Assembly (NCBI GenBank): GCA_963700145.1
Contig: OY969474.1
Coordinates: forward strand, 4,448,001 to 4,512,000
From: an uncultured Acidobacteriota bacterium
GTDB taxonomy: Bacteria > Acidobacteriota > Thermoanaerobaculia > Multivoradales > UBA5704
Length of the DNA stretch: 64,000 nt
Reading direction: 5' to 3'
The translations under genes and the position numbers were made by a program. Below are positions 25,740-54,710 of the stretch, one piece after another. The notes beneath the pieces are model-generated. The model was not told where the DNA came from, did not search any database, and saw nothing but the letters and a program-made list of their open reading frames with translations. Numbering within the stretch: position 1 is the first letter of the stretch; each line of letters opens with the position of its first letter.

Positions 25740-25754
25740 GGGAAGGACCTCCCT

Positions 25755-27959: not shown

Positions 27960-27977
27960 CCCTCGGTGGTGCAAAAC

Positions 27978-39124: not shown

Positions 39125-40081
39125 ATGGCTTGGAAGCCCGCGACCTCGCAGCTCTCGTTGGTCCTCCCTGGCGCCCCGGCGTCACAGTTTCATTCTACAG
39201 ATGTTGAGGTCAGAACCCGCAAGTCCAGGCGCGCTGGCAGCCTGATCCGGCAGGCGCTCTACCTCGACCAGGAGGATGCCTACGCCGCCGGCGAGGTCGG
39301 TTTCCTGGCCCGGGCGCTCGTCCAAGCCACGCTGCCCCACAGCGACCCGAAGACCAACGAGTTCGTGCGGCGGAACGGCCACTTCACGCTGTCGATCATG
39401 GCGCCCAAAGACGTCGGCCTCCCCTACGGCCGCTATCCTCGCTTGGTTCTGGCCTACCTGAGCACCGAGGCGGTCCGGCGAAAGAGCCCCGACGTCGAGC
39501 TCGGCAGCCACTTCTCTCACTTCTGCGCCTCCCTCGGCATCCCACCGACTTCCGGGCCTCGGGGCTCGCTGCCAATGCTCCGCGACCAGATGCAGCGCCT
39601 CTTCGCCTCGACCTTCCAGTGCATCTTCCATGACGAGAGCAAGGGCAGCCACGCCGGCGACGGCTTCCTGGTCGCCGAGAAGCGGGAGCTTTGGTGGGAT
39701 CCGCGACACGACAGGGGTGAGCTCTCGTGGGGCTCGCACGTGGTCCTCTCGGACCGGTTCTTCCGCGAGGCGACTGAGGCACCGGTGCCGCTTGATCTGC
39801 GGGTCCTGCGCGCCCTCCGATCGCCGTTCGAGATCGACATCTACATCTGGCTCACCTGGAGGTTCTTTCGGCTGCGCCGGCCGGTGACCATTCCTTGGCC
39901 GTCGCTGGCGCTCCAGTTCGGCTCGGGGTACGCGAACCCGCGGCACTTCAAGAAGCGGTTCCTCGGCTACCTCCGCGGGGTCATCGACTACTACCCGAAT
40001 GTGAGGCTGGAGAGCTCGTCAGCGGGGCTGCTGCTCAAGCCGTCGCCAACGCACATCGAGCCACGGCCGGCGAAGCGTTGA
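39125..40081 (+). CDS. repA: Plasmid replication initiator RepA (IncW-like RepA_C family)
   Basis: GFLARALVQATLPHSDP, GLPYGRYPRL, PVPLDLRVLRALR, IYIWLTWR, QFGSGY; start uncertain. Confidence 0.88.
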   Translation: MAWKPATSQLSLVLPGAPASQFHSTDVEVRTRKSRRAGSLIRQALYLDQEDAYAAGEVGFLARALVQATLPHSDPKTNEFVRRNGHFTLSIMAPKDVGLPYGRYPRLVLAYLSTEAVRRKSPDVELGSHFSHFCASLGIPPTSGPRGSLPMLRDQMQRLFASTFQCIFHDESKGSHAGDGFLVAEKRELWWDPRHDRGELSWGSHVVLSDRFFREATEAPVPLDLRVLRALRSPFEIDIYIWLTWRFFRLRRPVTIPWPSLALQFGSGYANPRHFKKRFLGYLRGVIDYYPNVRLESSSAGLLLKPSPTHIEPRPAKR

Positions 40082-40096
40082 GCGGGTCCTGATGGT

Positions 40097-40131
40097 TTGC
40101 ACAAAAGTTAACCCTGGGTTAACATTTGCGC
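40097..40131 (+). promoter_or_regulatory. abiE promoter with overlapping inverted-repeat operator
   Basis: TTGCAC-17-TAACAT; 33-bp imperfect palindrome at 40099-40131 (14/16 arm match). Confidence 0.7.
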
Positions 40132-40134
40132 GCC

Positions 40135-40734
40135 ATGGGCACCGTAGCTCCGAAGGCACGGAACCAGCCGGATTGGGATGGCCTCTTCACCGTCGCGCAG
40201 GCCCAGAGCGGCTACTTCACGACGGCTCAAGCCGCCCAGTCGGGCTATTCGCGTCCACTCCTTCACAAGTACCTGGCGACGGGGAAGGTGGCGCGCGTGC
40301 GACGTGGCGTCTACCGCGTCGTTCACTTCCCGGCCAGCGAGCACGAGGACCTCATCGTGCTCTGGCTTTGGGCCGAGCAGGCCGGGGTCTTTTCCCATGA
40401 GACGGCCCTCGCGCTCCACGATCTCTCCGACGCGCTTCCCGGAAAGGTCCACATGACGGTGCCCCCGAGCTGGCGTCGTCGTCGTCTCCGAGTCCCTGCC
40501 GGCCTCGTCCTGCACTTCGCCGACGTCGGCGACGTCGATCGCGCCAGCTACTCGGCGGTGCCCGTCACGACGCCGCTCCGGACCCTGCGAGACTGCATCG
40601 AGGCCAACGTCGCCGCCGACCTCGTGCGGCAGGGGATTCTCCAGGCGCGTCGGCGCGGGATCGTTTCCGCGAAAGATGAAGCTCGACTTCTTGCCGGCCT
40701 TGGCAGCCAGGCTCGAACGGTAGCCGCGCGATGA
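40135..40734 (+). CDS. abiEi: Type IV TA antitoxin AbiEi
   Basis: AQSGYFTTAQA, RVRRGVYR, SHETALALH, VPVTTPLRTLRD. Confidence 0.9.
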   Translation: MGTVAPKARNQPDWDGLFTVAQAQSGYFTTAQAAQSGYSRPLLHKYLATGKVARVRRGVYRVVHFPASEHEDLIVLWLWAEQAGVFSHETALALHDLSDALPGKVHMTVPPSWRRRRLRVPAGLVLHFADVGDVDRASYSAVPVTTPLRTLRDCIEANVAADLVRQGILQARRRGIVSAKDEARLLAGLGSQARTVAAR

Positions 40735-41654
40735 CCGCTCGCCAGTACGCAACGCCTCTGGCCTTCAAGCAGGCCCTCGAGCAACGGCTCAAGTCCTCGT
40801 CTGCCACCGGCGTCGACTTCGCTCGGCGCCGCCAGTTGCTCGTCTTCGATCGCTTCCTCGCTCGCCTGGCCCAGGTCGCTGGCGACGCCGTTACTCTCAA
40901 GGGTGGGCTCGTCCTCGAACTTCGCCTCGCTCGGGCGCGGACCACCAAAGACATCGACCTTCGCATGATGGGCTCGTCCGACGACGTGCTCGAGCGGCTC
41001 CAGGAAGCAGGCCGCCTCGACCTCGGCGACCACATGCTGTTCGAGGTCCAGCCGGATGCGGATCAGCCCGAGATCCAGAACGAAGGGATGCGCTACGACG
41101 GTTTTCGCTATCGCACCGAGTGTCGGCTCGCGGGCATGATCTACAGCCGACCGTTCGGCGTCGACGTAGCCTTCGGGGATCCGCTCGTGGGCCAACCGGA
41201 CATCGTCGTTGCCGACGACATCCTGGCCTTCGCAGGCATTGCCCCTCCGTCGCTGCGCCTGTATCCGGTCGTCTCCCACATCGCCGAGAAGCTTCACGCG
41301 CTCACGATGCCCCGGCCGAGGCCGAACACGCGGGTTCGAGATCTTCCCGACCTGGCACTGCTGGCGACGACCGGCCCGATCGAAGGGGCGGAGCTTCGCT
41401 TGGCGCTCGAGAGGACGTTCGGCTTCCGAGGCACTCACCCGCTGCCTGCATCCGTTCCCGCGCCGCCGGCGTTCTGGGAAGCCCCCTACGCTGCGATGGC
41501 CTCGGGCGACGAACTGATCTGGGGGACGCTTGCGGACGTCACGGGAGCCGTATCAGCCTTCCTTGATCCCGCGCTCGATTCGGCCAGCTGCGGGACCTGG
41601 GAGCCGACGGACTGGCGCTGGGACGCCGCTCGTGAGGCGCCCGCGCACCGATGA
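40731..41654 (+). CDS. abiEii: Type IV TA toxin AbiEii (nucleotidyltransferase)
   Basis: LKGGLVL, RTTKDID, AEKLHA, RVRDLPDL. Confidence 0.92.
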   Translation: MTARQYATPLAFKQALEQRLKSSSATGVDFARRRQLLVFDRFLARLAQVAGDAVTLKGGLVLELRLARARTTKDIDLRMMGSSDDVLERLQEAGRLDLGDHMLFEVQPDADQPEIQNEGMRYDGFRYRTECRLAGMIYSRPFGVDVAFGDPLVGQPDIVVADDILAFAGIAPPSLRLYPVVSHIAEKLHALTMPRPRPNTRVRDLPDLALLATTGPIEGAELRLALERTFGFRGTHPLPASVPAPPAFWEAPYAAMASGDELIWGTLADVTGAVSAFLDPALDSASCGTWEPTDWRWDAAREAPAHR

Positions 41655-41665
41655 AACTGTGACGG
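41647..41665 (+). repeat. Orphan iteron copy, identical to 46685-46703
   Basis: ACCGATGAAACTGTGACGG. Confidence 0.9.
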
Positions 41666-41708
41666 GGCGCCGCCGCGACGCCAGAGGCTGGCGCCGTGCT
41701 CGGGCCGT

Positions 41709-43181
41709 CTAGGTCAGGAGGAACGAGGGGGCGTAGCCCGGCTGCTGATCCTCCATGACCTCAACCTCACGCGCTACAGCGTTCAATTGGTGCCCGAGGA
41801 AGCAGGCGCCGCTAAGCGGGCCGAAGTAGAAGAGCAGAAGCCGCCTGGCGCCGTGCTCTTTCACGAAGGAGCGCATCCGCTCCTTCGTACGTCGCGCGAA
41901 TGCCACTACGTCTGCCGCCGAGCCGAAACACTCGCGGCCGAGCTCCCGGTCAGGGCGTAGGAACAAGACGGCTTGTGCCGCCAGGGTCGCCTGCAGGTAC
42001 CTTCGGACGTCGTCATCGAGCGACCCTGTAACGCTGATTCCGACAGCGACGGAGGAGCGATCGCCACCCTCGATCTGCTCCCGGCCGTGTTCGAGAACAT
42101 CGAGGGTAGACGGCAGCGCATCGGTGCGCCAGAGCTTTCCCTGCTGGTCCACCTCGACCGTGTAGCGCGCGACGTCGGCGAACGTGTGTCCAAAGGCAAA
42201 CCACGCCGACAGCCGCGAGAGTCCTCGCGCGCGAATCAGGCGTGCCGTCGAGCTCGTGTTGAGCTGTCCCTCGAGGGCGCGGAGCTCGGGGAGCATCTTC
42301 TCGTTCCACGCCGCCGGGTCCAGGACGCGGTGTCCTCTCTTCTGCTCGTCGCCTTCGAAATATCCTCGCCAGTCGAGCAGGTGATCGGGAGGCACTTCGA
42401 ACCGCTGCTGCTTCACGGTCGAGAGGTAGACGGTAGTCGCTGGCTCGCTGCTGGCCGGCAGGTGAAGGCCATGCTCGGCCAGTAGCGCCTCAACGTCAGC
42501 GCGCCGCCGGGCTCCTCGCGCTGCCTTGACGAGGTTCCTCACGATGCCGACGCCGATCAACAGCGCCGCTGAGTCGTGCCGGAGGCCAAGGTGCTCCATT
42601 CGTTCGGCGACGCGCGCCTCCAACTCCTCCGCACAGTCGAAACCGAGGCGTAGCCGTAGCGAGCCGGCGAAGGCGCGGAACTCTTCCTCCTTGATCGAGA
42701 GGTGACTCAGCCACTGGTCGCGCGCCTTCCCGAGGGCGCCTCCCGGCGACGCCGTAAAGAAGTCCTCCGACAGCGCGCAGTCCGTACCCCGAATGCATTC
42801 TCTGACGCGGTCGGCTGGATCCCACGTCCAGTTGCTGACCAGCCGCAACTCGATCGGGAACTCGGCGTCAGTGCGCAGTGCCCGCCACGTCTCGTGGAAC
42901 TTCCTGAGCAGGCTCCTGCCCTTGCCTCTTGCATCGAGGAAGGTGTCCGTGGAGTACTGACTGCGCTGGTCGACGTGGTACTTCACCTGGAGGAACAAGT
43001 TAGGCCGAGTTGCCTGCTCCTCGTACTCCATCGTGATGTCGTCAACGAAGGCGGCATCCGGGTCCTCGATGGTGACGCTCCGGAGGTGACTCTTCGGCAT
43101 GAGCAACTCCAGCAGGTGCAACCAGCCGATCAGATGCTGGTAGTCGTCACCAGCGAGCCGGGCCGCAACCTGGTTTGCCAT
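41709..43181 (-). CDS. CBASS effector: Cap4-like PD-(D/E)xK endonuclease fused to SAVED domain
   Basis: GDDYQ, VDD...LQVKYH nuclease motifs; C-terminal LLLFYFGPLSGACFLGHQLN (SAVED); start overlaps the CD-NTase stop. Confidence 0.85.
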   Translation of the reverse strand: MANQVAARLAGDDYQHLIGWLHLLELLMPKSHLRSVTIEDPDAAFVDDITMEYEEQATRPNLFLQVKYHVDQRSQYSTDTFLDARGKGRSLLRKFHETWRALRTDAEFPIELRLVSNWTWDPADRVRECIRGTDCALSEDFFTASPGGALGKARDQWLSHLSIKEEEFRAFAGSLRLRLGFDCAEELEARVAERMEHLGLRHDSAALLIGVGIVRNLVKAARGARRRADVEALLAEHGLHLPASSEPATTVYLSTVKQQRFEVPPDHLLDWRGYFEGDEQKRGHRVLDPAAWNEKMLPELRALEGQLNTSSTARLIRARGLSRLSAWFAFGHTFADVARYTVEVDQQGKLWRTDALPSTLDVLEHGREQIEGGDRSSVAVGISVTGSLDDDVRRYLQATLAAQAVLFLRPDRELGRECFGSAADVVAFARRTKERMRSFVKEHGARRLLLFYFGPLSGACFLGHQLNAVAREVEVMEDQQPGYAPSFLLT

Positions 43182-44071
43182 CAGGACAGCGGGAACAACG
43201 GGCCGAGCAGTGCCCGCCACGCGCTGAGAGCGGCGCCGCCCTTCCCTCCCCGCGCCAAGTGGATCGCCTCCGTTGCCGCACCGCCGGCCGAGCTGAGGGC
43301 TGCTCTCGCGGACGCACACAGGTTGGCGTCCATCTTGTCGCTCACAGGTGGGCCGAGACCGGCCGGGTCAGCCCAGGTTTCGTGGATGCGGTCTGCGAGC
43401 GCGTGGAAGAAGCCCTGCATCTCGCGATCGAACTCGCCCCCGAAAGGAGGGTGCAGAACCTCGAGCGCCATCACTTCGACTAGGAAGGACGGCTTGACAA
43501 CCTTCCCCTGGTGGTTGTTCCAGTACTTCATCATTCTGACGAGAGCCTTCCACTCGCCGCTGTACGCTTGCTGTGCGTCAACCGCCTTCTGCTCGTGCAC
43601 CTTCGGGTTCGTGCTGGTCCAGCCTGAGCTCGCCTGCGTGTCTGGGATCTCGAAGTAGTCGTCCTTCGCGAACGCCGGCACAACATCGAAGCTCATCACT
43701 TGCTCGTCGGTCTGGTCGTCGGTCGAGACGACGCCGAAGTCAACGCTGACAGACCGGCGCTGCATCGCCACGCAGTCGCGGCCGTACTTTTCAGCGAGTG
43801 CCGACTCGACATCAGCGAGGAGTACAGTCGGCACCTTCGACCGATAGTGCCGCTCCTTCGCGCCCAGAACGCAGAAGATGTCCACGTCCTTCAGCGGCTT
43901 CGTTTTCGTCCAACGCTTGTAGGAGCCGGTGAGGAAGTCCGTCTCGATGTCGAACTTCGTGTCCATGTGCTCGCGGATCTCCCGCTGGCGGCGCGAGGCG
44001 TCCTTCTGCTCCTTGTCGGTCAGCTCCAGCCGGCTCTTGAACTTCCGGAATGCCTCGTCGATCGTCAGCAT
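43181..44071 (-). CDS. cdnD: CBASS CD-NTase (CdnD-like oligonucleotide cyclase)
   Basis: MLTIDEAFRKFKSRLEL, FLTGSY...KPLKDVD, FDVVPAF, KPSFLVEVMA, WADPAGLGP; closely resembles P. aeruginosa CdnD as recalled. Confidence 0.92.
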   Translation of the reverse strand: MLTIDEAFRKFKSRLELTDKEQKDASRRQREIREHMDTKFDIETDFLTGSYKRWTKTKPLKDVDIFCVLGAKERHYRSKVPTVLLADVESALAEKYGRDCVAMQRRSVSVDFGVVSTDDQTDEQVMSFDVVPAFAKDDYFEIPDTQASSGWTSTNPKVHEQKAVDAQQAYSGEWKALVRMMKYWNNHQGKVVKPSFLVEVMALEVLHPPFGGEFDREMQGFFHALADRIHETWADPAGLGPPVSDKMDANLCASARAALSSAGGAATEAIHLARGGKGGAALSAWRALLGPLFPLS

Positions 44072-44075
44072 CGCT

Positions 44076-44579
44076 TTACACTCTCCGGTAGTACGTCGCG
44101 CCGGCACCGAGCCCGCTGGCATCCACGGTGGTCCCGATGCTCTGCCGGACGAAGCCAGCCGTTGACCGGTAGGTCGTGCTTGACCAGCCGGAGACGTTAG
44201 GGCGCCCCGCCTTGGTGTGCACCACCACGCGATAGTCGCAAGTCGATGGCCACAAGCCCTGCTTCTGGATCGCATATCGAATCTGGTCGGTGTCGATCCA
44301 GAAGGCACCGGAACCGTCGGTCCATCCGTAGGCGATCGAGAAATCCCACCGTCCGACAAGCGCATCGGTCCGCGGGTTGAATACTTCGAGCGTGACAGTT
44401 TCGAGATCACGCGTCGTGATCCAGGTCGAGAGCCCTCGCTCGAGGTTCGTCCAGTCGTCCGCGATCTTGCTCGGATCCAGGCCGCTCTTCTTGATGATCT
44501 CTTGGAGGCAGTACAGCAGGTTGTTCGTCACGTAGGTGACGGAATGGGTGTACGTGTTGACGGCGACGAAGGTGCTCAT
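44076..44579 (-). CDS. cap7: HORMA domain protein Cap7 (HORMA2)
   Basis: YTHSVTYVT...SGLDP...RWD...YGWTDGSGAFW..YRST; resembles P. aeruginosa HORMA2. Confidence 0.88.
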   Translation of the reverse strand: MSTFVAVNTYTHSVTYVTNNLLYCLQEIIKKSGLDPSKIADDWTNLERGLSTWITTRDLETVTLEVFNPRTDALVGRWDFSIAYGWTDGSGAFWIDTDQIRYAIQKQGLWPSTCDYRVVVHTKAGRPNVSGWSSTTYRSTAGFVRQSIGTTVDASGLGAGATYYRRV

Positions 44580-45046
44580 GGCCGCAGGAAGGACTCCAGG
44601 TTGATGCTCGCCTCCGAAGCGGAGGTCTTCTCTTCAGTGTCAGGGGGAGACGTCTCCGCGAGGTCGCGGGCGGTGACCCGTGACGAGTGTCGCTTGAGGC
44701 TGGCATTTACCCAAGAGAGATCGTCTGTGGGGCAAGGTAGCGACATGGCCCAGGTTTCCGATTCGGCGGGCGAGCTAGGCAGAGCTGCCTCGTTCACGCC
44801 CTCACCCTCGATCGCTGCCTCTCCGTATACGCAGTACAACCGGATACGGGGGCCATTCCCGGTTACCACGATGGGAGACTCCTTCATCGCCTCGCGCGTG
44901 ATGAGGGATGACGCGATCCCGGTCACGCGCCGCAGTTCATCTTGGGCCGAGGTGTTCGTCGGCGCCACGAGGTCGATGACACGAAGCCACGTCTCGCTGG
45001 CGAGTCGGGCCGGAATCGACGCGAGCCTGCGCGCGACAACCGTCAT
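44576..45046 (-). CDS. cap8: HORMA domain protein Cap8 (HORMA3)
   Basis: MTVVARR...GPRIRLYC...SLPCP...LKRHSSRVTARD; resembles P. aeruginosa HORMA3. Confidence 0.85.
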   Translation of the reverse strand: MTVVARRLASIPARLASETWLRVIDLVAPTNTSAQDELRRVTGIASSLITREAMKESPIVVTGNGPRIRLYCVYGEAAIEGEGVNEAALPSSPAESETWAMSLPCPTDDLSWVNASLKRHSSRVTARDLAETSPPDTEEKTSASEASINLESFLRP

Positions 45047-45972
45047 CGGATCTTCTCCGTGCTGCTCTTCTGCTCTGCCTTGGCCGCTTGCGCTGCCGCG
45101 AGGATGTCGGCGCCGGTCAGGGATGCTGGGTCGACAGCAACTTCCTTTCGCCGAGCGCAGGCGGAGACGACGACCTTCCGAATCTGGCGGCCGTCGAGCC
45201 CTTCGCAGACCGTCGCCGCCTTGGTAACGTCCTTGTCTCCATTCAGGCTCTTCAGCCGCGGGTACGCCTCGGCGAGCGCTGCGATCGTCGACAGGAGGAT
45301 CGAGTGACACGCCTCTGGGGTCGGAAGGCCGATCGTGCGCACGAGGTCGGCTCGCGACACCAGAGCGGAGTCGATCGCCCCAGGGAAATTGCTCGTGGCG
45401 ATGAATAGCAGCTTCTTCTGCTTCGCGGCGAGGTAATCCAGCTGCGCAAGGACCGCATCCGTCGCCCGGTGGACGTCGATCGGATTGGCTTCCAGGCTCA
45501 TCTTCGAGCGGTCAGCAGCGAGCGTCTCGACTTCATCGAGGAGAACGATGAGGGGGTCGCCCGCCTGCTCCGCGATGGTCTGCCCGAAGAGTTCGGTGAC
45601 GGCCTTCTGGCTCCGTCCCAGCCTCGCGCTTGCCAGCCCATGTGGCTCGACCTCGAGGTAGCGAAAGGCACCGAGTCCCTTCACAGCCGCGGCGATTCGA
45701 GAGGCAAGACCGCGTGCGAGAGAGGTCTTGCCGGTGCCCGGCGGCCCAACGAGGAGGAGTACACCGTGAAGCGGCACGAGTGCGGGGTTCACCCGGGGGC
45801 GGAGGGTGAAGTTGAGAACACCCTGAGCCAGGAGTTCGTCCTTCAGAGCCGGGGCGACAACGATGGCGTCCCACAGCGCATCGAAGTCGGCGTCCGGCAG
45901 TAGCCTGCTGTCGAGGATGCCTTCTGCCTCGACCCGCCACTCCTTCTTCGCTGCCGCCTGGTTGCTACGCAC
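45043..45972 (-). CDS. cap6: TRIP13/Pch2-like AAA+ ATPase Cap6
   Basis: GPPGTGKTSLA, VLLDEVETLA, ANPIDVHRATDAVLAQLD, ATSN. Confidence 0.92.
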   Translation of the reverse strand: MRSNQAAAKKEWRVEAEGILDSRLLPDADFDALWDAIVVAPALKDELLAQGVLNFTLRPRVNPALVPLHGVLLLVGPPGTGKTSLARGLASRIAAAVKGLGAFRYLEVEPHGLASARLGRSQKAVTELFGQTIAEQAGDPLIVLLDEVETLAADRSKMSLEANPIDVHRATDAVLAQLDYLAAKQKKLLFIATSNFPGAIDSALVSRADLVRTIGLPTPEACHSILLSTIAALAEAYPRLKSLNGDKDVTKAATVCEGLDGRQIRKVVVSACARRKEVAVDPASLTGADILAAAQAAKAEQKSSTEKIR

Positions 45973-45975
45973 TCT

Positions 45976-46623
45976 TCACTCGCTCTCTTTTGGGATCGTG
46001 GCGACGACAACACCCTGAAGCCGGAAGTCGGGGCCAACCACGATCGGTCGGTGCACAGGGTTCGTCGACATCGGTTCGAGCAGGATCGCGTCTCGCCCGA
46101 CGCGAAGGCGCTTCACGGTCGCGCTGTCGTCGATGAGTGCGACGACGTGCTCACCGGGCTCTGCGGTGTCCTGTTGCCTGACGAGCACAAGGTCACCGTC
46201 CTGGATCCCTACGCGGTCCATGGAGTCGCCCCGGACCCGGAGAATGAAGTAGCTCCAGCGCCCTCGAGCGAGGCTCGTCGAGACGGGGATATAGCTCTCG
46301 ACATTCTCAACAGCGAGGATCGGCTGGCCGGCCGCAACCTGGCCGATGACGGGCACCGGCACGGTATCGGTGCGGTCTGGTACTTCGGTGCCGGTATAGC
46401 GCCGCAGGACGCGGACGTTGCGCGCCCCCGCCGCGCGGTCGATATATCCGGCCTGTTGGAGGGCATCGAGGAACTGCGCGACGCTGCGTGGCGAGCGGAA
46501 CCCTCCTAACGCCTGCATCTCGCGCACACTCGGTGGTACCCCCTCGCGGGCCTGGTACTGGACGAGTCGCTCGAGGAAGAGCGACTGCTTGGGTGTGAGT
46601 TTCTCGGGACGGTCTTCTCCCAT
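45976..46623 (-). CDS. lexA: LexA-family self-cleaving transcriptional repressor
   Basis: LTPKQ...PPSVREM wHTH, VAAG cleavage site, GDSM (Ser), TVKR (Lys). Confidence 0.92.
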   Translation of the reverse strand: MGEDRPEKLTPKQSLFLERLVQYQAREGVPPSVREMQALGGFRSPRSVAQFLDALQQAGYIDRAAGARNVRVLRRYTGTEVPDRTDTVPVPVIGQVAAGQPILAVENVESYIPVSTSLARGRWSYFILRVRGDSMDRVGIQDGDLVLVRQQDTAEPGEHVVALIDDSATVKRLRVGRDAILLEPMSTNPVHRPIVVGPDFRLQGVVVATIPKESE

Positions 46624-46631
46624 GGAGCAGG

Positions 46632-46637
46632 ATTATA
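46632..46637 (-). promoter_or_regulatory. Perfect -10 box (TATAAT) 8 nt upstream of lexA ATG; probably leaderless transcript
   Basis: Minus strand TTTGTG-TATAAT-CCTGCTCC-ATG; no SD. Confidence 0.6.
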
Positions 46638-46684
46638 CACAAACGCGCCAATCCGCCGGAGTCGGCGTCGGGCCCGCGCCAGTA

Positions 46685-46933
46685 ACCGATGAAACTGTGA
46701 CGGTCAGACGCGCCCCTCTTTCCACAGCGGCCTGCGGATTCAGAGGAGTTTTCCAGATGAAACGGTGACGCCCCCACCGATGAAACTGTGACGCCCGTCG
46801 GCCTGGCACCGATGAAACGGTGACGCGGGCCCGATGATTCGGTGACGCGACCTCGGTGCAAGTCATTGATGCTGCGGCACCTGCGCCGTCCCCCTGTAGT
46901 TCCCTGTAGATACTCCTCTAGCTCACCTCGTAG
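46685..46933 (+). repeat. Iteron array / putative oriV
   Basis: GATGA(A/T)(A/T)C(T/G)GTGACG at 46688, 46756, 46779, 46811, 46833; DnaA-box-like CTTTCCACA at 46718; periodic CCTGTAG-like units at 46893-46933. Confidence 0.75.
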
Positions 46934-47022
46934 CAGCGCGACGGCGGCTGCGGAAAACAGCCAGGACCTGAGTCCGCAAGACCAGGGATCCGCGTGACGC
47001 TGCGCTCTCCCCCTCAACGCAC

Positions 47023-47112
47023 GACCAGTCTCATCAGCCGCTCCGGGGCGTCAAGGCCGAGCCCTCCGGGTGGCCTGCGGCCAGCCTTGACGCTTCCTCG
47101 CGGCCGGACTGG
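47023..47112. promoter_or_regulatory. Long hairpin, ssi/Frpo-like single-strand element upstream of ardC
   Basis: GCGTCAAGGC (47048) ... GCCTTGACGC (47084) perfect arms plus outer pairing. Confidence 0.55.
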
Positions 47113-47186
47113 CTCTTCAGGTGCGTTGAGGGGAAGCCCTCAGGTTCTCGGAATCCACCGAGAACGGCACCGAGAGGAGAGCGGCG

Positions 47187-48119
47187 ATGTCGAAGGTCTA
47201 CGAGGTGATCACCGGTCAGATCGTGGAGCAGTTGGAGCGCGGGGTGGTTCCGTGGGCGCGGCCGTGGAAGGTGGATGGACTGGCGCCGTCGAACTTGGTC
47301 TCGCGGCGGCCGTACCGCGGGATCAACGTCTTTCTGCTCGGCTTCCGCGCGGCGACGACGCCGTGGTGGCTGACGTTCCGGCAGGCAAAGGCGCTGGGTG
47401 GCAGCGTGCGCGCGGGTGAGCGGTCGACGCCGGTGATCTTCTGGCGCTGGATCGACCGGGCCGAGCGCGGGATCGACGATGCGTCCTCCGGCAGCGAGCG
47501 GCGGCGCGAGCGCCTGCCGGTGCTGCGCTACTACTCGGTGTTCAACCTCGACCAGACCGAGGGGATCGACGTCTCGAAGGTCCCCGCAGTCGATGCTTCG
47601 GCTATCGACGGCGTACCGACCGCCGAAGAGATCGTCGCCCGGTTCCCGGATCCGCCGGCGATCGAGCACCTGGCGCAGCCACGGGCTTTCTATCGTCCGT
47701 CGACGGACAGCGTGACGATGCCGCCGAGAAACGCGTTCGAGCGGGCCGAGGGTTACTACTCGACGCTCTTTCACGAGCTCACGCACGCAACCGGCCACGC
47801 CAAGCGCCTGGCGCGGCCCGGCTTCGACAAGAACCACGCTTCGCCGTTCGGCTCCGAGCCGTACGCGCGCGAGGAACTGGTGGCGGAGTTGGGCGCCGCG
47901 TTCTTGTGCGGCGAGGCCGGCCTCGAGCCCGACATCTCGAACTCGGCGGCCTACATCGACCACTGGCGCCAGCAGCTCTCGCGCGACTCGCGCCTGGTGA
48001 TCACCGCCGCGCAGCAGGCGCAGCGGGCCGCCGACTTCATCCTCGGCCGCGTCGCGCGATCCGCCGAGGAATCGGAATCCCACTCGATGGAGGAAAGCCG
48101 AGAAGAAGAAGCAGCTTGA
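47187..48119 (+). CDS. ardC: Antirestriction protein ArdC (ssDNA-binding + zincin-like domain)
   Basis: PWARPW, RPYRGIN, WLTFRQA, YSVFNLDQ, HELTHATGH, YAREELVAE. Confidence 0.93.
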   Translation: MSKVYEVITGQIVEQLERGVVPWARPWKVDGLAPSNLVSRRPYRGINVFLLGFRAATTPWWLTFRQAKALGGSVRAGERSTPVIFWRWIDRAERGIDDASSGSERRRERLPVLRYYSVFNLDQTEGIDVSKVPAVDASAIDGVPTAEEIVARFPDPPAIEHLAQPRAFYRPSTDSVTMPPRNAFERAEGYYSTLFHELTHATGHAKRLARPGFDKNHASPFGSEPYAREELVAELGAAFLCGEAGLEPDISNSAAYIDHWRQQLSRDSRLVITAAQQAQRAADFILGRVARSAEESESHSMEESREEEAA

Positions 48120-48165
48120 CTCGGAGCAGCGGGCTCGGTAGCGTCCGCAAGTCAACAAACGTTGA
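48116..48165 (+). promoter_or_regulatory. ssb promoter with TCAAC-N4-GTTGA operator
   Basis: TTGACT-17-TAGCGT; palindrome at 48152-48165. Confidence 0.65.
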
Positions 48166-48190
48166 TATAGAGACCGAAAGGGGAGATTCC

Positions 48191-48538
48191 GTGCTGAACA
48201 AGGTGCAGCTCATCGGCCACATCGGACAGGACCCGGAGATTCGCGAGACGCCGCAGGGCACCAAGGTTGCCGACCTTCGCCTGGCTACGAGCCGTTACTG
48301 GCGCGACGGCGAAGGCAACCGCCAGGAGGAGACGGAGTGGCACCGCGTCGTCTTCTGGGGCAAGACCGCTGAGAACGTCGCGTCGGTGCTCGCCAAGGGG
48401 CGGCTGGTCTACGTGGAGGGCCGGATTCAGACTCGGTCCTGGGAGGACGAGAGCGGCAAGCACTTCCGCACCGAGGTGATCGCGGAGAGTTGGCAGGCGT
48501 TGACCCGGGCTGCGGGCTCGGGAGAAGCCGCCGCGTAA
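48191..48538 (+). CDS. ssb: Single-stranded DNA-binding protein (short, no acidic tail)
   Basis: LNKVQLIGHIGQDPE, TEWHRVV, KGRLVYVEGRIQTRSW. Confidence 0.92.
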   Translation: MLNKVQLIGHIGQDPEIRETPQGTKVADLRLATSRYWRDGEGNRQEETEWHRVVFWGKTAENVASVLAKGRLVYVEGRIQTRSWEDESGKHFRTEVIAESWQALTRAAGSGEAAA

Positions 48539-49130
48539 GCACTGAAGCGACGGGGCTGCTGGTTTCTCCAGAGGACCAGAGGCCGCGATCCCATTCCTTC
48601 TCGACCGCCGAGTCGGGAGAACTCTCGCCAGGAGGCGCAATGTGCGACAACGATCGAAGCTATTCAGTGACGGTGGGGCCCGAGCGGTCGTCCGAGTCCT
48701 GCTCATTCTCTTCGCCCTGCCACTCGTCATCCTCGCGGCAGTCGCCGGTGGGGCACTGTCGGGACTCCGAGCTCGGCCGCGGTTCTGAAGGGCGTTCGAC
48801 TAGGGCCGATTCGTACCCGATGCCACTCGTCACGGCCGAGCGGATCTATCGCTGTTTGGGTGCTGGTCGAGCGGCGCGTGCGGGGGATGTGCTCCTTCGG
48901 CCTGAGGGAGTGAGCCGGTCCACGCTTCGGAGGTGGCTGCGGTCGGGCTGGATCGTGCACCGCGATCGAGTCGTTCTCACCGCCAAGGGTTGTTCTGCGC
49001 TCCCGGTTCACCAGGAGGTCGTGGCGTTCGCTCGACGGTCTGGTCGAAGCACCCTGTTTCTGTAGGCCCACTCGGTGACACCCATCCGGACCCTGAGCCC
49101 ATCCGTCCCCCTCGCCCGCATGTCTTGGAA

Positions 49131-49209
49131 GGCCCGGCGAAGGCGGTCGGGTCAAGGGCGGTCGAAAGACCGGCGCCAGCGAACCCTTGACGCGATCGAC
49201 TGTCGGGCC
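49131..49209. promoter_or_regulatory. Second ssi-like hairpin
   Basis: GTCAAGGG (49151) ... CCCTTGAC (49184), same architecture as 47048-47093. Confidence 0.5.
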
Positions 49210-49329
49210 ACCCTTCAGCGCGCGAGGGGGCGACCGGTGTTGTGCTACCCCAGCGTCTCTGCCTGTTCTTCAATTCGACCGCTCCCGGAGCTTCGAGGCC
49301 ACTCCGACTGCTGGTTAGGAGCCAGCCAT

Positions 49330-49490
49330 GTTTCCCGGCCCGGGAAACCTCGCCGCCGCTCTCGCGGCAGGCGGGTTTCTCCCGGGCAGGCAACGGCTGG
49401 CCGCGGCTCGCTTGGGCTCGCAGGCGGTATCGGCGGGCTCGAGTTGCAAATTTGCAACTCCCTGCCGAACGCCGCCAACCGGAGTCCGGT
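49330..49490. other. Putative oriT region
   Basis: Intergenic region directly upstream of mobC; perfect 20-bp palindrome GAGTTGCAAATTTGCAACTC at 49441-49460. Confidence 0.5.
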
Positions 49491-49853
49491 GTGACCCGCC
49501 GGGGGCGTCCGCGCAAGGACCCGGCGCGGGCGCGCGTCGTCAAGAACGGCGCGCATTTCACGCCGGCTGAAGACGGCCGCTTGCGAGATCGTGCCCGATC
49601 CCTCGGCATCACCGTCGCGGAGTTGTTGCGGGAGGCCGCCCTCGGTCGGCCCCTTCCCCGGCGTCACCAGCCCGACCCGATCGCGTCGGACCAATGGGTC
49701 GAGCTCGGCCGGCTCGCGGCGAACCTCAATCAGCTCCAGCGCGCGATCAACCGCGGACAGACCGAAGGCGTTCCGGTGGCGCTCGTCGAGGAGCTTCGCC
49801 GGTTGCTTCACGACGTCCGCCAGTCGCTGATCGGCAAGGCGGGCGCCGCGTGA
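49491..49853 (+). CDS. mobC: Relaxosome accessory protein MobC
   Basis: RHH-like N-terminus, ELGRLAANLNQL motif, overlaps relaxase start. Confidence 0.85.
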   Translation: MTRRGRPRKDPARARVVKNGAHFTPAEDGRLRDRARSLGITVAELLREAALGRPLPRRHQPDPIASDQWVELGRLAANLNQLQRAINRGQTEGVPVALVEELRRLLHDVRQSLIGKAGAA

Positions 49854-52096
49854 TTCAGAGCATTCACAAGGGGAAGGGCTTTCGCGGTGTCCTCAACTAC
49901 GTCTTCGGCCGCGCGAAGTCGCCGGAGCTCGTGGGCGGCAACATGTACGGCGAGGACCCGCGCGCCCTCGCGCAGGAGTTCGGCGAGTGGCGAGAGCTGC
50001 GGCCTGGATTGACGCGCGCCGTCTTCCATTCCTCTCTCTCCCTGCCGCACGGACCCACCGGGCGCGAAGAGCTGAGCGACGCGCAGTGGCGCGACGTTGC
50101 GGAGCGCTACCTCGAACACCTTGGCTACGGGCGCTCGCCGTTCGTCGTGGTGCGCCATCGCGACACCGAGCACGACCACGTCCATATCGTCGCGGCGCGC
50201 ATCGGCGCCGACGGTCGCGCTGTCTCCGACTCGCACGACTACCGTCGTGGCGAGGAGGTCCTCCGTCAGCTCGAGCGCGAATACGGGCTCACCCAGGTCA
50301 AGTCGGCGCACGAGGTCGAGAAGACTGCGATGCGCCCCGGCGAGATCCGCCAGCTCGAGCGCACGGGCGAGGTAAGCACTCGTCTTCGCCTGCAGGATCT
50401 GCTCGATCGCGCCGCCGCGGATCGGCCTTCGATGACCACCTTCCTCGATCGGCTGCGTGAGGCGGGTGTCGAACCGGCGCCGCGGGTGGCGACGACGGGG
50501 CACGTTTCGGGCATCTCCTACGGCCTCGACGGCACGAGCTTTCGCGGCTCGGCGCTCGGACGCGCCTATTCGTGGCGTGGTGTTCAAGAGCATCTCGGTG
50601 TCGACTACCAACCCGAGCGAGATCTCGGAGCGGTGCGCGCAGCGGCTAGGCCGGACCGCGGCACAAGCCACACGCCGACGCCTTGGTCGCCCGCGAGTCT
50701 CGAGGCGCTTCAGAAGGAGCTGCGGGTGCTTCCGAGCGTTGCGCGTCGCGGTGTCGTCTCGCGGGCCGCGTCGGGCCTGGCTCGAGCGGGAGCCGGTGCG
50801 CTCGACGGACCGGCCGATGCCGTACGCCTTGCGTACGCCCTGCGTTCTCCTCGGTCGGCGGTGCGCCACGTAGCACGCCGCACTCCGGGTCTCGGTGCCG
50901 TGGCGCCGATCCTCGACCTCGCCAACGCGGCGCGTTCGCCCCTCGGACTTCTGCTCTATGGCGCCCGCCTGGCGACAACTGCGGGTCGGCTGGCTCTGCC
51001 GGCGCTCGCGAAGAGCGCGGCTCCGAGTCCGCTGTCGCGCAGCGTTGCTGCGGCCTACGTCCGGGCGGCTGCTACAGGAGCGCCCTCGATGGGACTCTTT
51101 CTCGACCGCCTCGAGGCCGCTGGCGTCCGAGCGCTCCCGCTGCTCGGCCGTGCTGGCGACGTGCGGGCCATCGTCTACCGCTTGGGAGATGAGCTGATCC
51201 CTGGCCAGGAGCTGGGGCCGTCCTTCACCTGGACCGGCCTTCAACGGCGTCTCGGAGTGACCTATGAGCCGACGAGAGACCTTCCTCGAATCCGCGAAGG
51301 CCGCGAACGACCAGGCCCTGAGCCCGGCGCCGGTGCTCGCGACCAACGCCCCCGCGAGGAGCGAGCTGGCCGCGATCCTGGCCGCCGCGGTGGAGACGAA
51401 CCGGAGATTGGAGTCGGTGGAGCGAGCCCTTCGCGAGGCCCTGCCGGCGACGCGCGAACACGCGGCGCCGAAGGCCACTCGGAGCCGCGCGGCGTCGACC
51501 GTGGTGTGGGCGCTCGTGGCGGCCTTGGCCACACTGCTGGGGATCACGCTGCTTCGCCCCGAGTGGGCGCTGCGATCCCATCAGCGGGCCGAGCTGCTTC
51601 TGGGCCAGAGGCTCTACCAGCGACTCCAGCACATGGAGGAGCCGGACCGGCTCGAGGTGCTGAAGTCGCTCTGGGCGGATCTGCCACCGACGAGCGACTA
51701 GCGGCGGCGGCGCTTCGCGAGTCCTTGCGGCGAACGGGGACGCCGCCGTTGGCGAGCTACCACCGCCATCCCGCCTACTCGGCCAGCCTCGATCGGGCTG
51801 ACGCCGCCTGGGCGACCGCGGCCCTCCGGCGTGGGGTCGAGCCGCACGTCGTGCTTCGCGAGGTGGCGGAGCGCGGTGCGCGGGCCGCGGCCTCGAAGGA
51901 TGCCGCGTTGGCGCACGGCACGCGCGTCGTGGCGCGCGCGCTCGCGACGGTGCAGCCGGGTCGTGCCGTCGAGAAGACGGTGTCGATGACCGTCCAGGCG
52001 CTCGCTACCGCGGTCAAGGCCCCGATCGCGGTGGTCAAGGCACTGTTGATTGTCCGCAGCATCGTGCGCGAGCTATCGCAGGAGCGAGGCCGATGA
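49850..52096 (+). CDS. MOBP-family relaxase
   Basis: GKGFRGVLNY, VFHSSLS, RHRDTEHDHVHIV. Confidence 0.9.
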   Translation: MIQSIHKGKGFRGVLNYVFGRAKSPELVGGNMYGEDPRALAQEFGEWRELRPGLTRAVFHSSLSLPHGPTGREELSDAQWRDVAERYLEHLGYGRSPFVVVRHRDTEHDHVHIVAARIGADGRAVSDSHDYRRGEEVLRQLEREYGLTQVKSAHEVEKTAMRPGEIRQLERTGEVSTRLRLQDLLDRAAADRPSMTTFLDRLREAGVEPAPRVATTGHVSGISYGLDGTSFRGSALGRAYSWRGVQEHLGVDYQPERDLGAVRAAARPDRGTSHTPTPWSPASLEALQKELRVLPSVARRGVVSRAASGLARAGAGALDGPADAVRLAYALRSPRSAVRHVARRTPGLGAVAPILDLANAARSPLGLLLYGARLATTAGRLALPALAKSAAPSPLSRSVAAAYVRAAATGAPSMGLFLDRLEAAGVRALPLLGRAGDVRAIVYRLGDELIPGQELGPSFTWTGLQRRLGVTYEPTRDLPRIREGRERPGPEPGAGARDQRPREERAGRDPGRRGGDEPEIGVGGASPSRGPAGDARTRGAEGHSEPRGVDRGVGARGGLGHTAGDHAASPRVGAAIPSAGRAASGPEALPATPAHGGAGPARGAEVALGGSATDERLAAAALRESLRRTGTPPLASYHRHPAYSASLDRADAAWATAALRRGVEPHVVLREVAERGARAAASKDAALAHGTRVVARALATVQPGRAVEKTVSMTVQALATAVKAPIAVVKALLIVRSIVRELSQERGR
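51264..51701 (+). CDS. Nested out-of-frame MobB-like membrane-anchored protein inside relaxase
   Basis: GGAG SD, helical protein-like composition with one TM helix, while the relaxase frame is low-complexity here. Confidence 0.6.
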   Translation: MSRRETFLESAKAANDQALSPAPVLATNAPARSELAAILAAAVETNRRLESVERALREALPATREHAAPKATRSRAASTVVWALVAALATLLGITLLRPEWALRSHQRAELLLGQRLYQRLQHMEEPDRLEVLKSLWADLPPTSD

Positions 52097-52620
52097 TTCG
52101 ATTCAAGACGACGGCGCCTCTCGTGGCGGTCGGTCTCTTCCTGGTGATCTATCTGGTTCCGCAGGCCACGGGCCTCCGGATCAACACGTCGACGAGCATG
52201 CCGCGGGGCCTGTACCGGTCGGTCGTCGGTGCCGTTCGACGAGACGCCGTGGCGGCCGTTTGCCTGCCGCCGGCGATCGCGAGGTTTGGAATGGAGCGGC
52301 ACTATCTCGGCGCGGGCTCGTGCCCCGACGGCTCGGAGCCTGTCGTCAAGGTTCTCGCCGCCGTGGAGGGCGATCGCATCGAAGTCACGGCGAGCGCGGT
52401 CTTGGTCAACGGCGTCCGGTTGCCTCACAGCCGGTCCCTCGACCGCGACCGAGGTGGGCGGGAGTTGCTGCCCTTCGCAGCGGGCGAGCATCGGCTGGAG
52501 CCAGGCGAGGTCTGGCTCTACTCGCCCTACGAGGAGCGGAGCTGGGACAGCCGGTACTTCGGGCCGGTTCGGATCGAGAACGTCACCACGATCGTCGAGC
52601 CGTTAGTGACGTTCCGATGA
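52093..52620 (+). CDS. traF: Conjugative pilin-processing peptidase TraF (S26)
   Basis: INTSTSMPRGLY, VVKVLAAVEGD, SWDSRYFGPV. Confidence 0.92.
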   Translation: MIRFKTTAPLVAVGLFLVIYLVPQATGLRINTSTSMPRGLYRSVVGAVRRDAVAAVCLPPAIARFGMERHYLGAGSCPDGSEPVVKVLAAVEGDRIEVTASAVLVNGVRLPHSRSLDRDRGGRELLPFAAGEHRLEPGEVWLYSPYEERSWDSRYFGPVRIENVTTIVEPLVTFR

Positions 52621-54710
52621 GCGCCCAGCCTTCCTACAGGCTCACGCCAGGCGGCGGGCTCACGGCCAAGGGCGTCGTCGCCCGGGGTCTCGCGGCGGTT
52701 GTCGGCGTCGCCACACTGACGGCCTGGGCGCTCACGCAGCACGCGGCGCTCCGGCTGGGGTTCCACGCCGCGCTTGGCCGTCCGTGGATCCCTGCGCTCG
52801 ACGGCCAAGAGGCGATGCTGAACATCGCCGCGTGGGCGCTCTGGGGAGCGGCGCTGCTCCTCCTCGCCCCGAAGCGCACGCGCTTGCTCGCACCGATCGC
52901 CGCGGTGCTCGGCGCGGGCGCCTTCGCCTGGTCGCTCGGACCGCTCTTCACGCCGTTCCATCTCTTCGTATGGGCACAGCGACTGAGCTCGACCGCAGCG
53001 GCGCACGAGTTCTGGCGATCGGCCTTCCTGGCGCTGGGCCTGACGACAGCAGCTTGCGCTGTCGTCGCAGCCATCGTCGTCACAGTGGCCATCAAGCGCC
53101 TCGATCCGCAGTCCGACCTCCACGGCTCCGCCCGGTGGGCCACGGAACGAGAGGCCAGAAACGCGGGGCTCTTCGCCGAGAACGGCCTCATCCTGGGGCA
53201 GTGGCCCGGTAGGAAGGGCCGGACACTTCGGCACGATGGACCGGAGCACGTCTTCGTCTTCGCTCCCACGCGGAGCGGCAAGGGCGTATCCCTCGTCGTA
53301 CCAAACCTGCTCACCTGGCCGCACTCGGTGCTCGTCCACGACATGAAAGGAGAGAACTGGGTGCTGTCGGCGGGCTGGCGGAGCCGCGAGCTCGGCAGCC
53401 TCTGTCTCAAGTTCGATCCCACTTGCTCGGACGGCTCGGGCGCGCGGTACAACCCGTTGCTCGAGATCCGGATGGGCGATCAGGAAGTGCGCGATGCGCA
53501 GAACGTCGCCGACATCCTCGTCGATCCGAACGGCGACCGCATTCGCGACCACTGGGACCGCACCGCGCATTCGCTCCTGGTCGGGCTCATCCTGCACGTT
53601 CTCTACGCGGAGAAGGAGAAGACGCTTGCCGGGTGCGCGCACTTCCTGGCGCGCCCCGACCGCCCGATCGACCTGAGCCTCGAGGTGCTGCTCGCCACCG
53701 AGCATGCGCCACCGGGGCACCCCGGTTGGCTCGATCCGATCACCGGCGAGTCGCTGCGGACGCACCCGACGGTCGCTGCCGCGGCGCGAGCGCTGATGGA
53801 CAAATCGCCGAACGAGCGCTCGGGTGTCCTGTCGACAGCCCTCAGCTTCCTCGATCTCTACCGCGATCCGATCCTGGCGCAGAACACCGCGGTCTCGGAC
53901 TTCGCGCTCGAGGACCTGGTGAGCCACGAGCGGCCAGTCAGCCTCTACCTCACGGTCCCGCCGTCCGATCTCAGCCGTACCCGGCCGCTCGTTCGTCTGC
54001 TGCTGAATCAGGCGTGTCGGCGACTGACGGAGCGCATGGACTTCTCGGAGGGTCGCGGCAGGGGAGCGGGCAAGCACCCACTCCTCCTGATGCTCGACGA
54101 GTTCCCCGCGCTCGGCAAGCTCCAGTTCTTCCAGGAGTCGCTGGCCTACCTCGCCGGCTACGACATCCGGGCAATGCTCATCACGCAGGATCTCTCGCAG
54201 CACCAGGGCGTCTACGGCAAGCAGGAGTCGATCACGGCGAACTGCCACGTCCGGATCGCCTTCGCCGCCAACAAGCCGGAGACCGCCGAGATGCTCTCCC
54301 AGATGGCAGGCGACACCACGGTGTCGCACAAGCAGGTCTCCTACCGCGGCGGGAGCCTGATGATGGGCGACAGGAACACCACACAGCAGGAGATTCGTCG
54401 TCGGCTTCTCACTCCGGACGAGGCGATGCGACTCGATCCGGACCACGAGGTCGTGTTCGTGGCCGGGCAACAGCCGATGTACGCGGGTAAGTCGCGCTAC
54501 TTCCAGGATCGCGAGCTGTCGAGGAGAGCCAACCTGGCGGCTCCGGCGTCATCAGGTCGGACCGGTCGCTGCGCCACGGCCTGGGGAGCCCTGCCACCCG
54601 CTTCGTCCGCCGTGCCGCCCACGGCCAGCCACGCTGGCGAGCTCAGTGCCCTGGCCTCGGCGCTCGACCGGGAACGAGCTCCCGAAGACGCGGTCGACCG
54701 CCAGGCCTGA
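52617..54710 (+). CDS. traG: Type IV coupling protein TraG/VirD4
   Basis: LHGSARWA, APTRSGKG, LMLDEFPALG, RRLLTPDE. Confidence 0.95.
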   Translation: MSAQPSYRLTPGGGLTAKGVVARGLAAVVGVATLTAWALTQHAALRLGFHAALGRPWIPALDGQEAMLNIAAWALWGAALLLLAPKRTRLLAPIAAVLGAGAFAWSLGPLFTPFHLFVWAQRLSSTAAAHEFWRSAFLALGLTTAACAVVAAIVVTVAIKRLDPQSDLHGSARWATEREARNAGLFAENGLILGQWPGRKGRTLRHDGPEHVFVFAPTRSGKGVSLVVPNLLTWPHSVLVHDMKGENWVLSAGWRSRELGSLCLKFDPTCSDGSGARYNPLLEIRMGDQEVRDAQNVADILVDPNGDRIRDHWDRTAHSLLVGLILHVLYAEKEKTLAGCAHFLARPDRPIDLSLEVLLATEHAPPGHPGWLDPITGESLRTHPTVAAAARALMDKSPNERSGVLSTALSFLDLYRDPILAQNTAVSDFALEDLVSHERPVSLYLTVPPSDLSRTRPLVRLLLNQACRRLTERMDFSEGRGRGAGKHPLLLMLDEFPALGKLQFFQESLAYLAGYDIRAMLITQDLSQHQGVYGKQESITANCHVRIAFAANKPETAEMLSQMAGDTTVSHKQVSYRGGSLMMGDRNTTQQEIRRRLLTPDEAMRLDPDHEVVFVAGQQPMYAGKSRYFQDRELSRRANLAAPASSGRTGRCATAWGALPPASSAVPPTASHAGELSALASALDRERAPEDAVDRQA

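Follow-up and report, generated by a model that had tools for sequence, protein, structure and literature searches.

Here we describe a stretch of 64,000 nucleotides (nt) from an uncultured Acidobacteriota bacterium (GenBank assembly GCA_963700145.1, contig OY969474.1, positions 4,448,001 to 4,512,000), hereafter the window, in which a gene for a LexA-family repressor heads the genes of a cyclic-oligonucleotide-based antiphage signaling system (CBASS). Six full-length genes, lexA-cap6-HORMA-HORMA-cdnD-cap4, follow one another on the minus strand (Table 1). A gap of 3 nt separates lexA from cap6, ATGA overlaps join cap6 to the first HORMA gene and the latter to bacHORMA_2, 4 nt precede the gene of the cGAS/DncV-like nucleotidyltransferase (CD-NTase), and 1 nt is shared by the CD-NTase and Cap4 genes. 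A first-pass annotation, made by a model from the bare sequence, had already read a tight cap6-cap8-cap7-cdnD-effector coupling here; Pfam and PADLOC assignments agree with it, and overlaps or gaps of at most 4 nt give the six genes, with lexA first, an operon-like layout. All parts of a type III CBASS are present, namely, the CD-NTase, the HORMA proteins, a TRIP13-like ATPase, and an effector with a cyclic-oligonucleotide sensor. By gene content, this is a complete type III CBASS, for which protection against phages is predicted.

The perfect TATAAT that had been noticed just upstream of lexA was found at 46632-46637, 8 nt ahead of the ATG, which would leave the lexA mRNA with little or no leader. 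The lexA of the host itself shows a like layout (TTGCAT, 17 nt, TATCCT, 7 nt, ATG). Since the TATAAT before the window lexA has no matching -35, it was missed by a consensus scan of 41400-47300, which returned no promoter-like site (0.4 expected in shuffles) and thus gave no sign of a separate cap6 promoter, the arrangement named by the first-pass annotation as contrary to its reading. An Rfam scan of 41000-50000 gave no match.

The product of lexA retains both domains of the family. Residues 7-67 match LexA_DNA_bind (PF01726; 6e-12, 45.6 bits against a cut-off of 23.7), the whole Peptidase_S24 model is covered (PF00717; 3e-28), and solved LexA structures align over nearly the whole length, from residue 8-9 onward (E 3e-26). 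In the alignment, VAAGQP, GDSM, and TVKRL stand opposite VAAGEP, GMSM, and TVKRL of Escherichia coli LexA, and A98-G99, S134, and K171 show no variation among 36 clade members. The description of an intact LexA with a winged helix, an Ala-Gly site, and a Ser/Lys dyad ending 3 nt before cap6 is thus upheld by Pfam, by the structure alignment, and by this invariance; judged by sequence, every feature that self-cleavage would need is present. The cleavage site and the dyad (Ala-Gly or Cys-Gly, Ser, Lys) were also kept in the five CBASS-linked LexA-like proteins inspected. Pfam found LexA_DNA_bind and Peptidase_S24 alone, with no WYL domain, and PADLOC had no family for the protein. This LexA is a second copy: the host genome (one 5.46-Mb contig) has one recA and another LexA at 1.95 Mb, 38% identical to that of the window.

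Table 1. Features of the CBASS operon and the surrounding element (positions in the window)
Feature	Coordinates	Strand	Matches and remarks
lexA paralogue	45976-46623	minus	215 aa; Pfam PF01726 and PF00717
cap6/TRIP13 (TRIP13-like AAA+ ATPase)	45043-45972	minus	PADLOC PDLC00915 6e-126; Pfam AAA
HORMA protein (cap8-like)	44576-45046	minus	PADLOC PDLC00881 8e-52
HORMA protein bacHORMA_2 (cap7-like)	44076-44579	minus	Pfam PF18173 1e-73; PADLOC PDLC00882
CD-NTase (cyclic oligonucleotide synthase)	43181-44071	minus	PADLOC PDLC00809 6e-130, model 1-295 of 295; Pfam SMODS
Cap4-type effector, PD-(D/E)xK endonuclease fused to SAVED sensor	41709-43181	minus	PADLOC PDLC02007 3e-94; Pfam SAVED PF18145
Candidate lexA promoter	46624-46650	minus	TATAAT inside block GGCGCRTTTGTGTATAATYCYGCTCC, conserved in G559
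Five direct repeats GTCACNGTTTCATCGG (16 nt)	46686-46701, 46754-46769, 46777-46792, 46809-46824, 46831-46846	minus	iteron-like
Single GTCACNGTTTCATCGG copy	41648-41663	minus	far boundary of exchangeable cargo
RepA	39125-40081	plus	Pfam RepA_C; element backbone, far side of cargo
AbiEi	40126-40734	plus	Pfam AbiEi_4; element backbone
AbiEii	40731-41654	plus	Pfam AbiEii; element backbone
ArdC	47187-48119	plus	Pfam; transcribed away from lexA
Single-stranded DNA-binding protein (SSB)	48161-48538	plus	Pfam; transcribed away from lexA
NikA-like	49242-49853	plus	Pfam; transcribed away from lexA
MobA/VirD2 relaxase	49694-52096	plus	Pfam; transcribed away from lexA
Type IV coupling protein (T4CP)	52050-54710	plus	Pfam; transcribed away from lexA

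The junction of lexA and cap6 was also found in other metagenomes. Logan contigs of four DNA runs were compared with 41400-47400, leaving out the best-matching run (X1), which may be the source sample. A 10.3-kb contig from wastewater (X6) spans 41641-47073 in one piece, with 320 other letters, and a 3.3-kb contig from soil (X3) spans 43791-47081; both bridge the lexA-cap6 junction, at a likeness of ~94-96%. Activated sludge (X4) holds the same genes in pieces, none of them across this junction. Left of 41641-41648, the soil and sludge contigs run into unlike sequence, and in the wastewater contig 4007 extra letters separate 41544 from 41641 (AbiEii to the single GTCACNGTTTCATCGG repeat). Consequently, these departures mark a recurrent recombination point or insertion hot spot.

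The region is an integrated conjugative element, with RepA, AbiE, ArdC, SSB, a relaxase, and a T4CP, and its G+C content (~0.62-0.70 from 35 kb to the window end) differs from that of the first 24 kb (0.70-0.81). The window LexA is therein an element-borne S24 repressor adjoining the transfer genes, as lexA and the divergent ardC-ssb-nikA-relaxase-T4CP genes have a 563-nt region in common. The AbiEi/AbiEii pair (40126-41654) adjoins the CBASS cargo, so that the element carries a small defense island. Upstream of the element, the G+C content also drops at 24001-28000 (to 0.63-0.66, from 0.70-0.81), and this separate stretch may be a further acquired island. Within the transfer-gene region, ARAGORN reported a 97-nt tRNA-Asn at 55492-55588, which overlaps long open reading frames (ORFs), is of unusual length, and may be spurious.

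A sister element in G559, a match from the class sample that belongs to the same order as the window genome but to another family, separates what is constant in this element from what is exchanged. The two have the same backbone, with protein identities to the window of 90% (RepA), 94% (AbiEi), 86% (AbiEii), 92% (LexA), 96% (ArdC), 95% (SSB), 97% (NikA-like), and 94% (relaxase). Between AbiEii and lexA, G559 has no Cap6, HORMA, or related CD-NTase. Its lexA is followed, again with 3 nt in between, by a TIR-SAVED gene (PDLC02012, 2e-62), and then by a CD-NTase whose clade differs from that of the window's (PDLC00822, 7e-107), a Cap2 E1-E2 protein (PDLC00848, 4e-175), and a 685-amino-acid (aa) ankyrin-repeat protein; to judge from these matches, this cargo is a type II CBASS, oriented as the type III system of the window. 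DNA homology between the two elements runs through the lexA-ardC spacer and lexA, ends at the lexA stop codon, and on the far side ends just past the single 16-nt repeat at 41648-41663. Given these two breaks, lexA belongs to the backbone and is followed by a slot for exchangeable cargo. The first-pass annotation is in this respect corrected: the operon layout, the cleavage features, and the defense linkage of homologues stand, whereas the LexA is not the CBASS's own gene but part of the conjugative backbone, with exchangeable cargo behind it.

This position invites another explanation, in which the LexA is the master repressor of the element, its targets are the ardC-ssb-relaxase genes or replication, and the CBASS is co-transcribed as incidental cargo. 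SetR of SXT-type elements and phage CI are S24 self-cleaving repressors of this kind, carried on mobile elements and inactivated through RecA; they have a helix-turn-helix of the CI/XRE type and act on transfer or lysis genes, whereas the window LexA has an N-terminal domain of the LexA type (PF01726) and defense genes directly behind it. The window-G559 comparison, in which lexA travels with the backbone and not with the cargo, agrees with a SetR-like role, as do the region shared with the oppositely running transfer genes, the insertion hot spot at the cargo boundary (~41641-41648) in three other runs, including the 4007-nt insertion in wastewater, and the presence of relaxase-like genes a few kilobases from four related LexA loci (L015, L026, L031, and L047). 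However, in both elements the CBASS has the same orientation, begins 3 nt after lexA, and has no promoter-like site of its own, and the tight pairing recurs without the backbone proteins of this element (tblastn; other mobile-element genes were not looked for). We regard incidental co-transcription as rather unlikely. Moreover, a master repressor is compatible with a CBASS gate, as one repressor could control both directions, and the window LexA may also control the divergent transfer functions.

Relatives of this LexA were found beside CBASS genes well beyond the element. Among the best 80 of 524 confirmed relatives in genome contigs (37-53% identical, ranked by similarity), 13 loci have a CD-NTase gene beside lexA, and in 12 of these it lies downstream on the same strand, at a spacing from overlap to ~930 nt, mostly a few nucleotides to ~300 nt. 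The paired loci come from Patescibacteria, Bacteroidota, Omnitrophota, Zixiibacteriota, and Pseudomonadota and cover CBASS types I, II, and III. The CD-NTase follows lexA in Saccharibacteria (L009), with HORMA in another member of the Patescibacteria (L039), with a 2TM effector in a second Saccharibacteria locus (L019) and, behind a 303-aa protein without assignment, in Paceibacterota (L041), with a 4TM effector in Omnitrophus (L044), and by a phmmer match only in an uncultured bacterium (L022). A TM protein precedes it in Zixiibacteriota (L052). In Bacteroidota, lexA is followed by CD-NTase, E2, a 4TM effector, and a second CD-NTase (L027 and L028), by phospholipase, CD-NTase, and Cap2 (L033), or, in the isolate Gillisia lutea M10.2A (L055), by CD-NTase after a 5-nt gap, a Cap2/JAB (Cap2/Cap3) fusion, and NucC. 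In a Wolfebacteria locus (L081) the CD-NTase lies ~930 nt downstream and the LexA profile was matched in the S24 part only, and a Proteobacteria locus (L020) has a divergent type II system. The expectation that homologues of this LexA would be linked to defense operons was thus confirmed for CBASS and, as described below, for other systems. In G766 and G767, a second full-length LexA exists, scoring 138 and 143 bits with the clade profile against 228 and 227 for the linked copy; in G763, G764, G1169, and the Gillisia lutea isolate (G1168), all Bacteroidota, no full-length LexA other than the CBASS-linked one was found.

The genes behind other related lexA genes were cataloged as ORF tallies, for 93 ORFs from the 46 loci not labeled CBASS in which a downstream ORF qualified (L055, whose CBASS was then unrecognized, is included). 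DUF2188, a PADLOC candidate (PDC-S16), was counted 11 times; DNA methylases of the N6/N4, C5, and D12 types, 5, 3, and 3 times; Y-family polymerase, 4; DnaE2-type polymerase, 3; RecA, 2; ThsB TIR, 4; SIR2, 3; STALD, 2; caspase, 3; Abi_C, 2; and restriction endonucleases, 2. Classical SOS genes are also found behind related lexA genes. The DUF2188 gene, ~80 aa, stands ~10-26 nt after lexA in its 11 loci (e.g., L015, L031, L035, L042, and L047). In L048, lexA precedes Thoeris genes (ThsB-ThsA-ThsB); three loci (L030, L037, and L045) have caspase-like C14 proteases behind it, five (L010, L013, L021, L051, and L056) have methylases, and L004 has a 1260-aa TPR-GreAB-PIN protein. Thus, defense cargo at this position is not limited to CBASS, and the cassettes seen behind lexA comprise CBASS types I-III, Thoeris, caspase-like proteases, methylase/restriction genes, and TPR-GreAB-PIN.

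The methylase and restriction genes recall the C proteins of restriction-modification systems, and the LexA could, like these, be a RecA-independent dose controller that acts by negative feedback, keeping the toxic operon steadily low and allowing a burst when the element reaches a new cell. A repressor encoded as the first gene of the operon under its putative control, on a conjugative element that repeatedly enters cells without the repressor, suits such a role. Yet the invariance of the cleavage site and dyad among the 36 clade members, and their retention in the five CBASS-linked proteins, would be unexpected if self-cleavage did not matter, and we find this explanation improbable.

Furthermore, the pairing was quantified from the CBASS side by searching ~390-400 genomes per phylum with PF18144 (SMODS) and scanning 6 kb on each side of the matches with a LexA-clade profile; PF18144 missed the CD-NTase of G765, and these samples are incomplete. 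In Patescibacteria, where 18 of 401 genomes have a CD-NTase match, a LexA-like gene occurs in 8 of the 18 loci, 5 on the same strand and 3 divergent, 7 of them matching both LexA domains and one (L266) the S24 part only. Acidobacteriota have a match in 17 of 390 other genomes and a LexA-like gene in 2 of 18 loci (with the window genome, G000, 20 matches in 18 of 391 genomes; the G000 locus and a 2.3-kb contig were left out). One of these two genes (L246) shares the orientation, at a gap of 50 nt, and the other (L254) is divergent and 1.65 kb off; a 70-aa S24 fragment (L252) was not counted. Bacteroidota have a match in 38 of 385 other genomes, giving 42 distinct loci, and in none of the 40 that remain without the two weakest matches is a LexA-like gene present. 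By these counts, Patescibacteria often have the pairing, Acidobacteriota have it occasionally, and in Bacteroidota it is rare.

Defense genes cluster on mobile elements, and with AbiE next door and the Bacteroidota count at zero, the adjacency of lexA and CBASS could in principle be the outcome of chance shuffling within a defense island, with no regulatory meaning. The 13 paired LexA loci, nearly all in one orientation and closely spaced, the 8 paired loci of Patescibacteria, and a pairing kept across samples and CBASS types make this very improbable indeed. The lexA-CBASS pairing, kept across samples, in the sister element, and in other phyla, is more than chance.

The first-pass annotation had also called for a LexA phylogeny against the host SOS LexA. 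In a FastTree phylogeny of 129 rows, with local support only, one 94-row clade unites the element-borne LexA clade with a sister group from many phyla that holds the scattered CBASS-linked LexAs, and the host LexA falls outside it, together with the second copy of G767 and LexAs of Firmicutes and viruses. The CBASS link, present in 14 of 60 rows of known context, requires 12 changes on the tree, against a shuffled mean of 12.8; it was therefore gained, lost, or exchanged many times and does not form one block. The close LexA clade is common in metagenomes (at least 120 clusters at 51-100% identity), and among the clusters listed the named members are Acidobacteriota or Thermoanaerobaculia. It is rare in representative genomes: the phylum and class samples, of 400 other genomes each, gave one match apiece, that of the phylum sample being 46% identical. 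A metagenome search with the window LexA gave 27 loci, of which one is close (L083, 73 residues at a contig end) and the rest are 36-64% identical, and the plasmid collection yielded LexA genes of at most 41% identity alone.

Taken together, we consider it fairly probable that the element-borne LexA paralogue is both the first gene and the transcriptional gate of a single lexA-cap6-HORMA-HORMA-cdnD-cap4 transcript. From what is established for the LexA family, we infer the following sequence of events. Transcription would start from the leaderless promoter, and LexA would repress this promoter of its own, so that the toxic CBASS proteins stay scarce. On single-stranded DNA (ssDNA), whether from damage, phage replication, prophage induction, or the entry of transferred DNA, RecA would stimulate LexA self-cleavage at Ala98-Gly99 by the Ser134/Lys171 dyad. 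The operon would then be derepressed, and more CBASS sensor and effector would be made, so that CBASS would rise with the SOS response. Defense cassettes exchanged in the slot right behind the lexA stop would inherit the same control.

It is important to consider that several observations weigh against such a gate. As a backbone gene that faces the transfer genes, lexA could have the element itself as its main target. The 80-locus LexA sample is biased by its ranking by similarity, no LexA-like gene lies within 6 kb of the 40 Bacteroidota CD-NTase loci, and a CD-NTase match was absent from all 80 LexA loci on viral contigs (phmmer) and all 27 metagenome loci, many of these contigs being short. 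In E. coli, according to the accessible part of one report, the expression of defense systems is negatively correlated with recA transcription (10.64898/2025.12.14.694197), and thus SOS induction of defense would not be a general rule. Palindromes and motifs shared upstream of 62 related lexA genes revealed no operator in 46624-46700. A further operator candidate is the block GGCGCRTTTGTGTATAATYCYGCTCC across the -10 and the lexA start; it is kept in G559 while its flanks diverge, and it contains no clear palindrome. An ATAC-N5-GTAT palindrome, a candidate LexA box by its position directly ahead of lexA in 26 of 59 related loci, is missing before the window lexA; TTTGTAT is the right half of this box in many related loci, and the window has TTTGTGTAT upstream of lexA with no left half. 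Finally, the GTCACNGTTTCATCGG repeats, 49-214 nt upstream of the lexA -10, look like iterons, possibly RepA sites, rather than LexA sites.

A LexA-operator role for the five GTCACNGTTTCATCGG copies was considered and rejected, because the repeat is also found where two repA operons end. Each of the five persists in G559, in a spacer whose adjoining sequence has diverged, and another single copy lies at 1.90 Mb of the host genome (1901998-1902013), at the very end of a RepA paralogue. A single copy and a cluster of five, both tied to repA, are what we take to be the iteron pattern of the element's RepA. The copy at 1.90 Mb suggests a remnant of a second, related replicon in the chromosome and also an iteron role for the repeat.

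The loci with ATAC-N5-GTAT (among L006-L061 and L110) belong to Bacteroidota, Nitrospirota, Acidobacteriota, and others, and those of Patescibacteria have another pattern upstream of lexA, GTATAG...TATAC. Midway along the lexA-ardC spacer (46895-46925), CTACAGGG occurs twice in direct orientation, 10-11 nt apart, and both copies are largely kept in G559. The 206 nt upstream of ardC (46985-47190) are nearly identical in the window and G559, with 2 differences in ~220 nt, and a long, imperfect hairpin is predicted for their ssDNA form (-62.5 kcal/mol; z -4.9; none of 200 shuffles did as well). Placed ahead of ardC-ssb, the hairpin may serve a conjugative leading region as a single-strand promoter or as a priming site.

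Repressors that respond to DNA damage are already known from CBASS, and the LexA-headed operon would belong with them; the LexA type is what is new. As far as the available text of the CapH/CapP preprint goes, that repressor heads CBASS and other immune operons and is removed by proteolysis upon DNA damage, as proposed here for the window LexA (10.1101/2022.04.27.489752). CapH/CapP is described there as two proteins, a helix-turn-helix repressor and an ImmA/IrrE-type metallopeptidase that senses ssDNA itself, whereas the window LexA is a single protein with a winged helix and an S24 serine peptidase, which RecA on ssDNA would activate. CapW/BrxR proteins, in the portions consulted, are defense-linked wHTH-WYL-WCX repressors that usually lie beside CBASS or other systems and answer ssDNA or DNA damage (PMC9122588, PMC11662680); the window LexA has no WYL domain, and relief would come from irreversible cleavage and not from ligand-induced release. 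CapK/CapS, a DNA damage-activated kinase and a repressor, is reported in the text available to work by phosphorylation, and its reporter was tested in strains without uvrA, uvrB, uvrC, uvrD, recA, or recB, the mitomycin C response depending on uvrA and uvrB (PMC13373217), whereas the window system would depend on RecA. The domains that define these three systems in the accessible text of their papers are not those of the window LexA. Chromosomal LexA is of the same family, with the same domains and an aligned cleavage site and dyad; the window protein differs in being a second copy on a conjugative element and in heading an abortive-infection operon.

The literature searched, with supplements and subscription journals outside its scope, contains no description of a co-operonic LexA as a CBASS regulator, in line with the first-pass annotation, to which none was known. 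In the text available, the word LexA is absent from the CapK/CapS paper (PMC13373217) and the CapH/CapP preprint (10.1101/2022.04.27.489752), and within the CapW paper (PMC9122588) it appears solely in the title of a reference.

Because CBASS kills the infected cell, the means by which its expression is restrained are a practical question that is still open. CapW, CapH/CapP, and CapK/CapS, the three CBASS regulator modules known to date, all answer to DNA damage, yet they bypass the classical SOS switch. The recurrence of the LexA-CBASS pairing in distant bacteria points to a so far undescribed coupling of this suicide-type immunity to the SOS signal, and the exact junction at the lexA stop, with type III cargo in one element and type II in the other, illustrates how a mobile element can offer a regulated slot for exchangeable defense cargo. 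More broadly, and tentatively, LexA-family self-cleaving repressors may form a fourth widespread class of defense-operon regulators, in which the slot behind lexA is a swap hot spot that confers RecA-dependent control, the sole LexA of some bacteria such as Gillisia lutea drives CBASS, and LexA could be the commonest regulator beside CD-NTase genes in Patescibacteria (8 of 18). The idea lends itself to direct testing in Gillisia lutea M10.2A, which is available in culture; if it is true, abortive infection in cases like this one would be a member of the SOS regulon. A lexA-headed operon would then link CBASS, and apparently other defense systems too, directly to RecA sensing, and immunity would be tied to antibiotic-induced DNA damage, prophage induction, and the entry of conjugative DNA.

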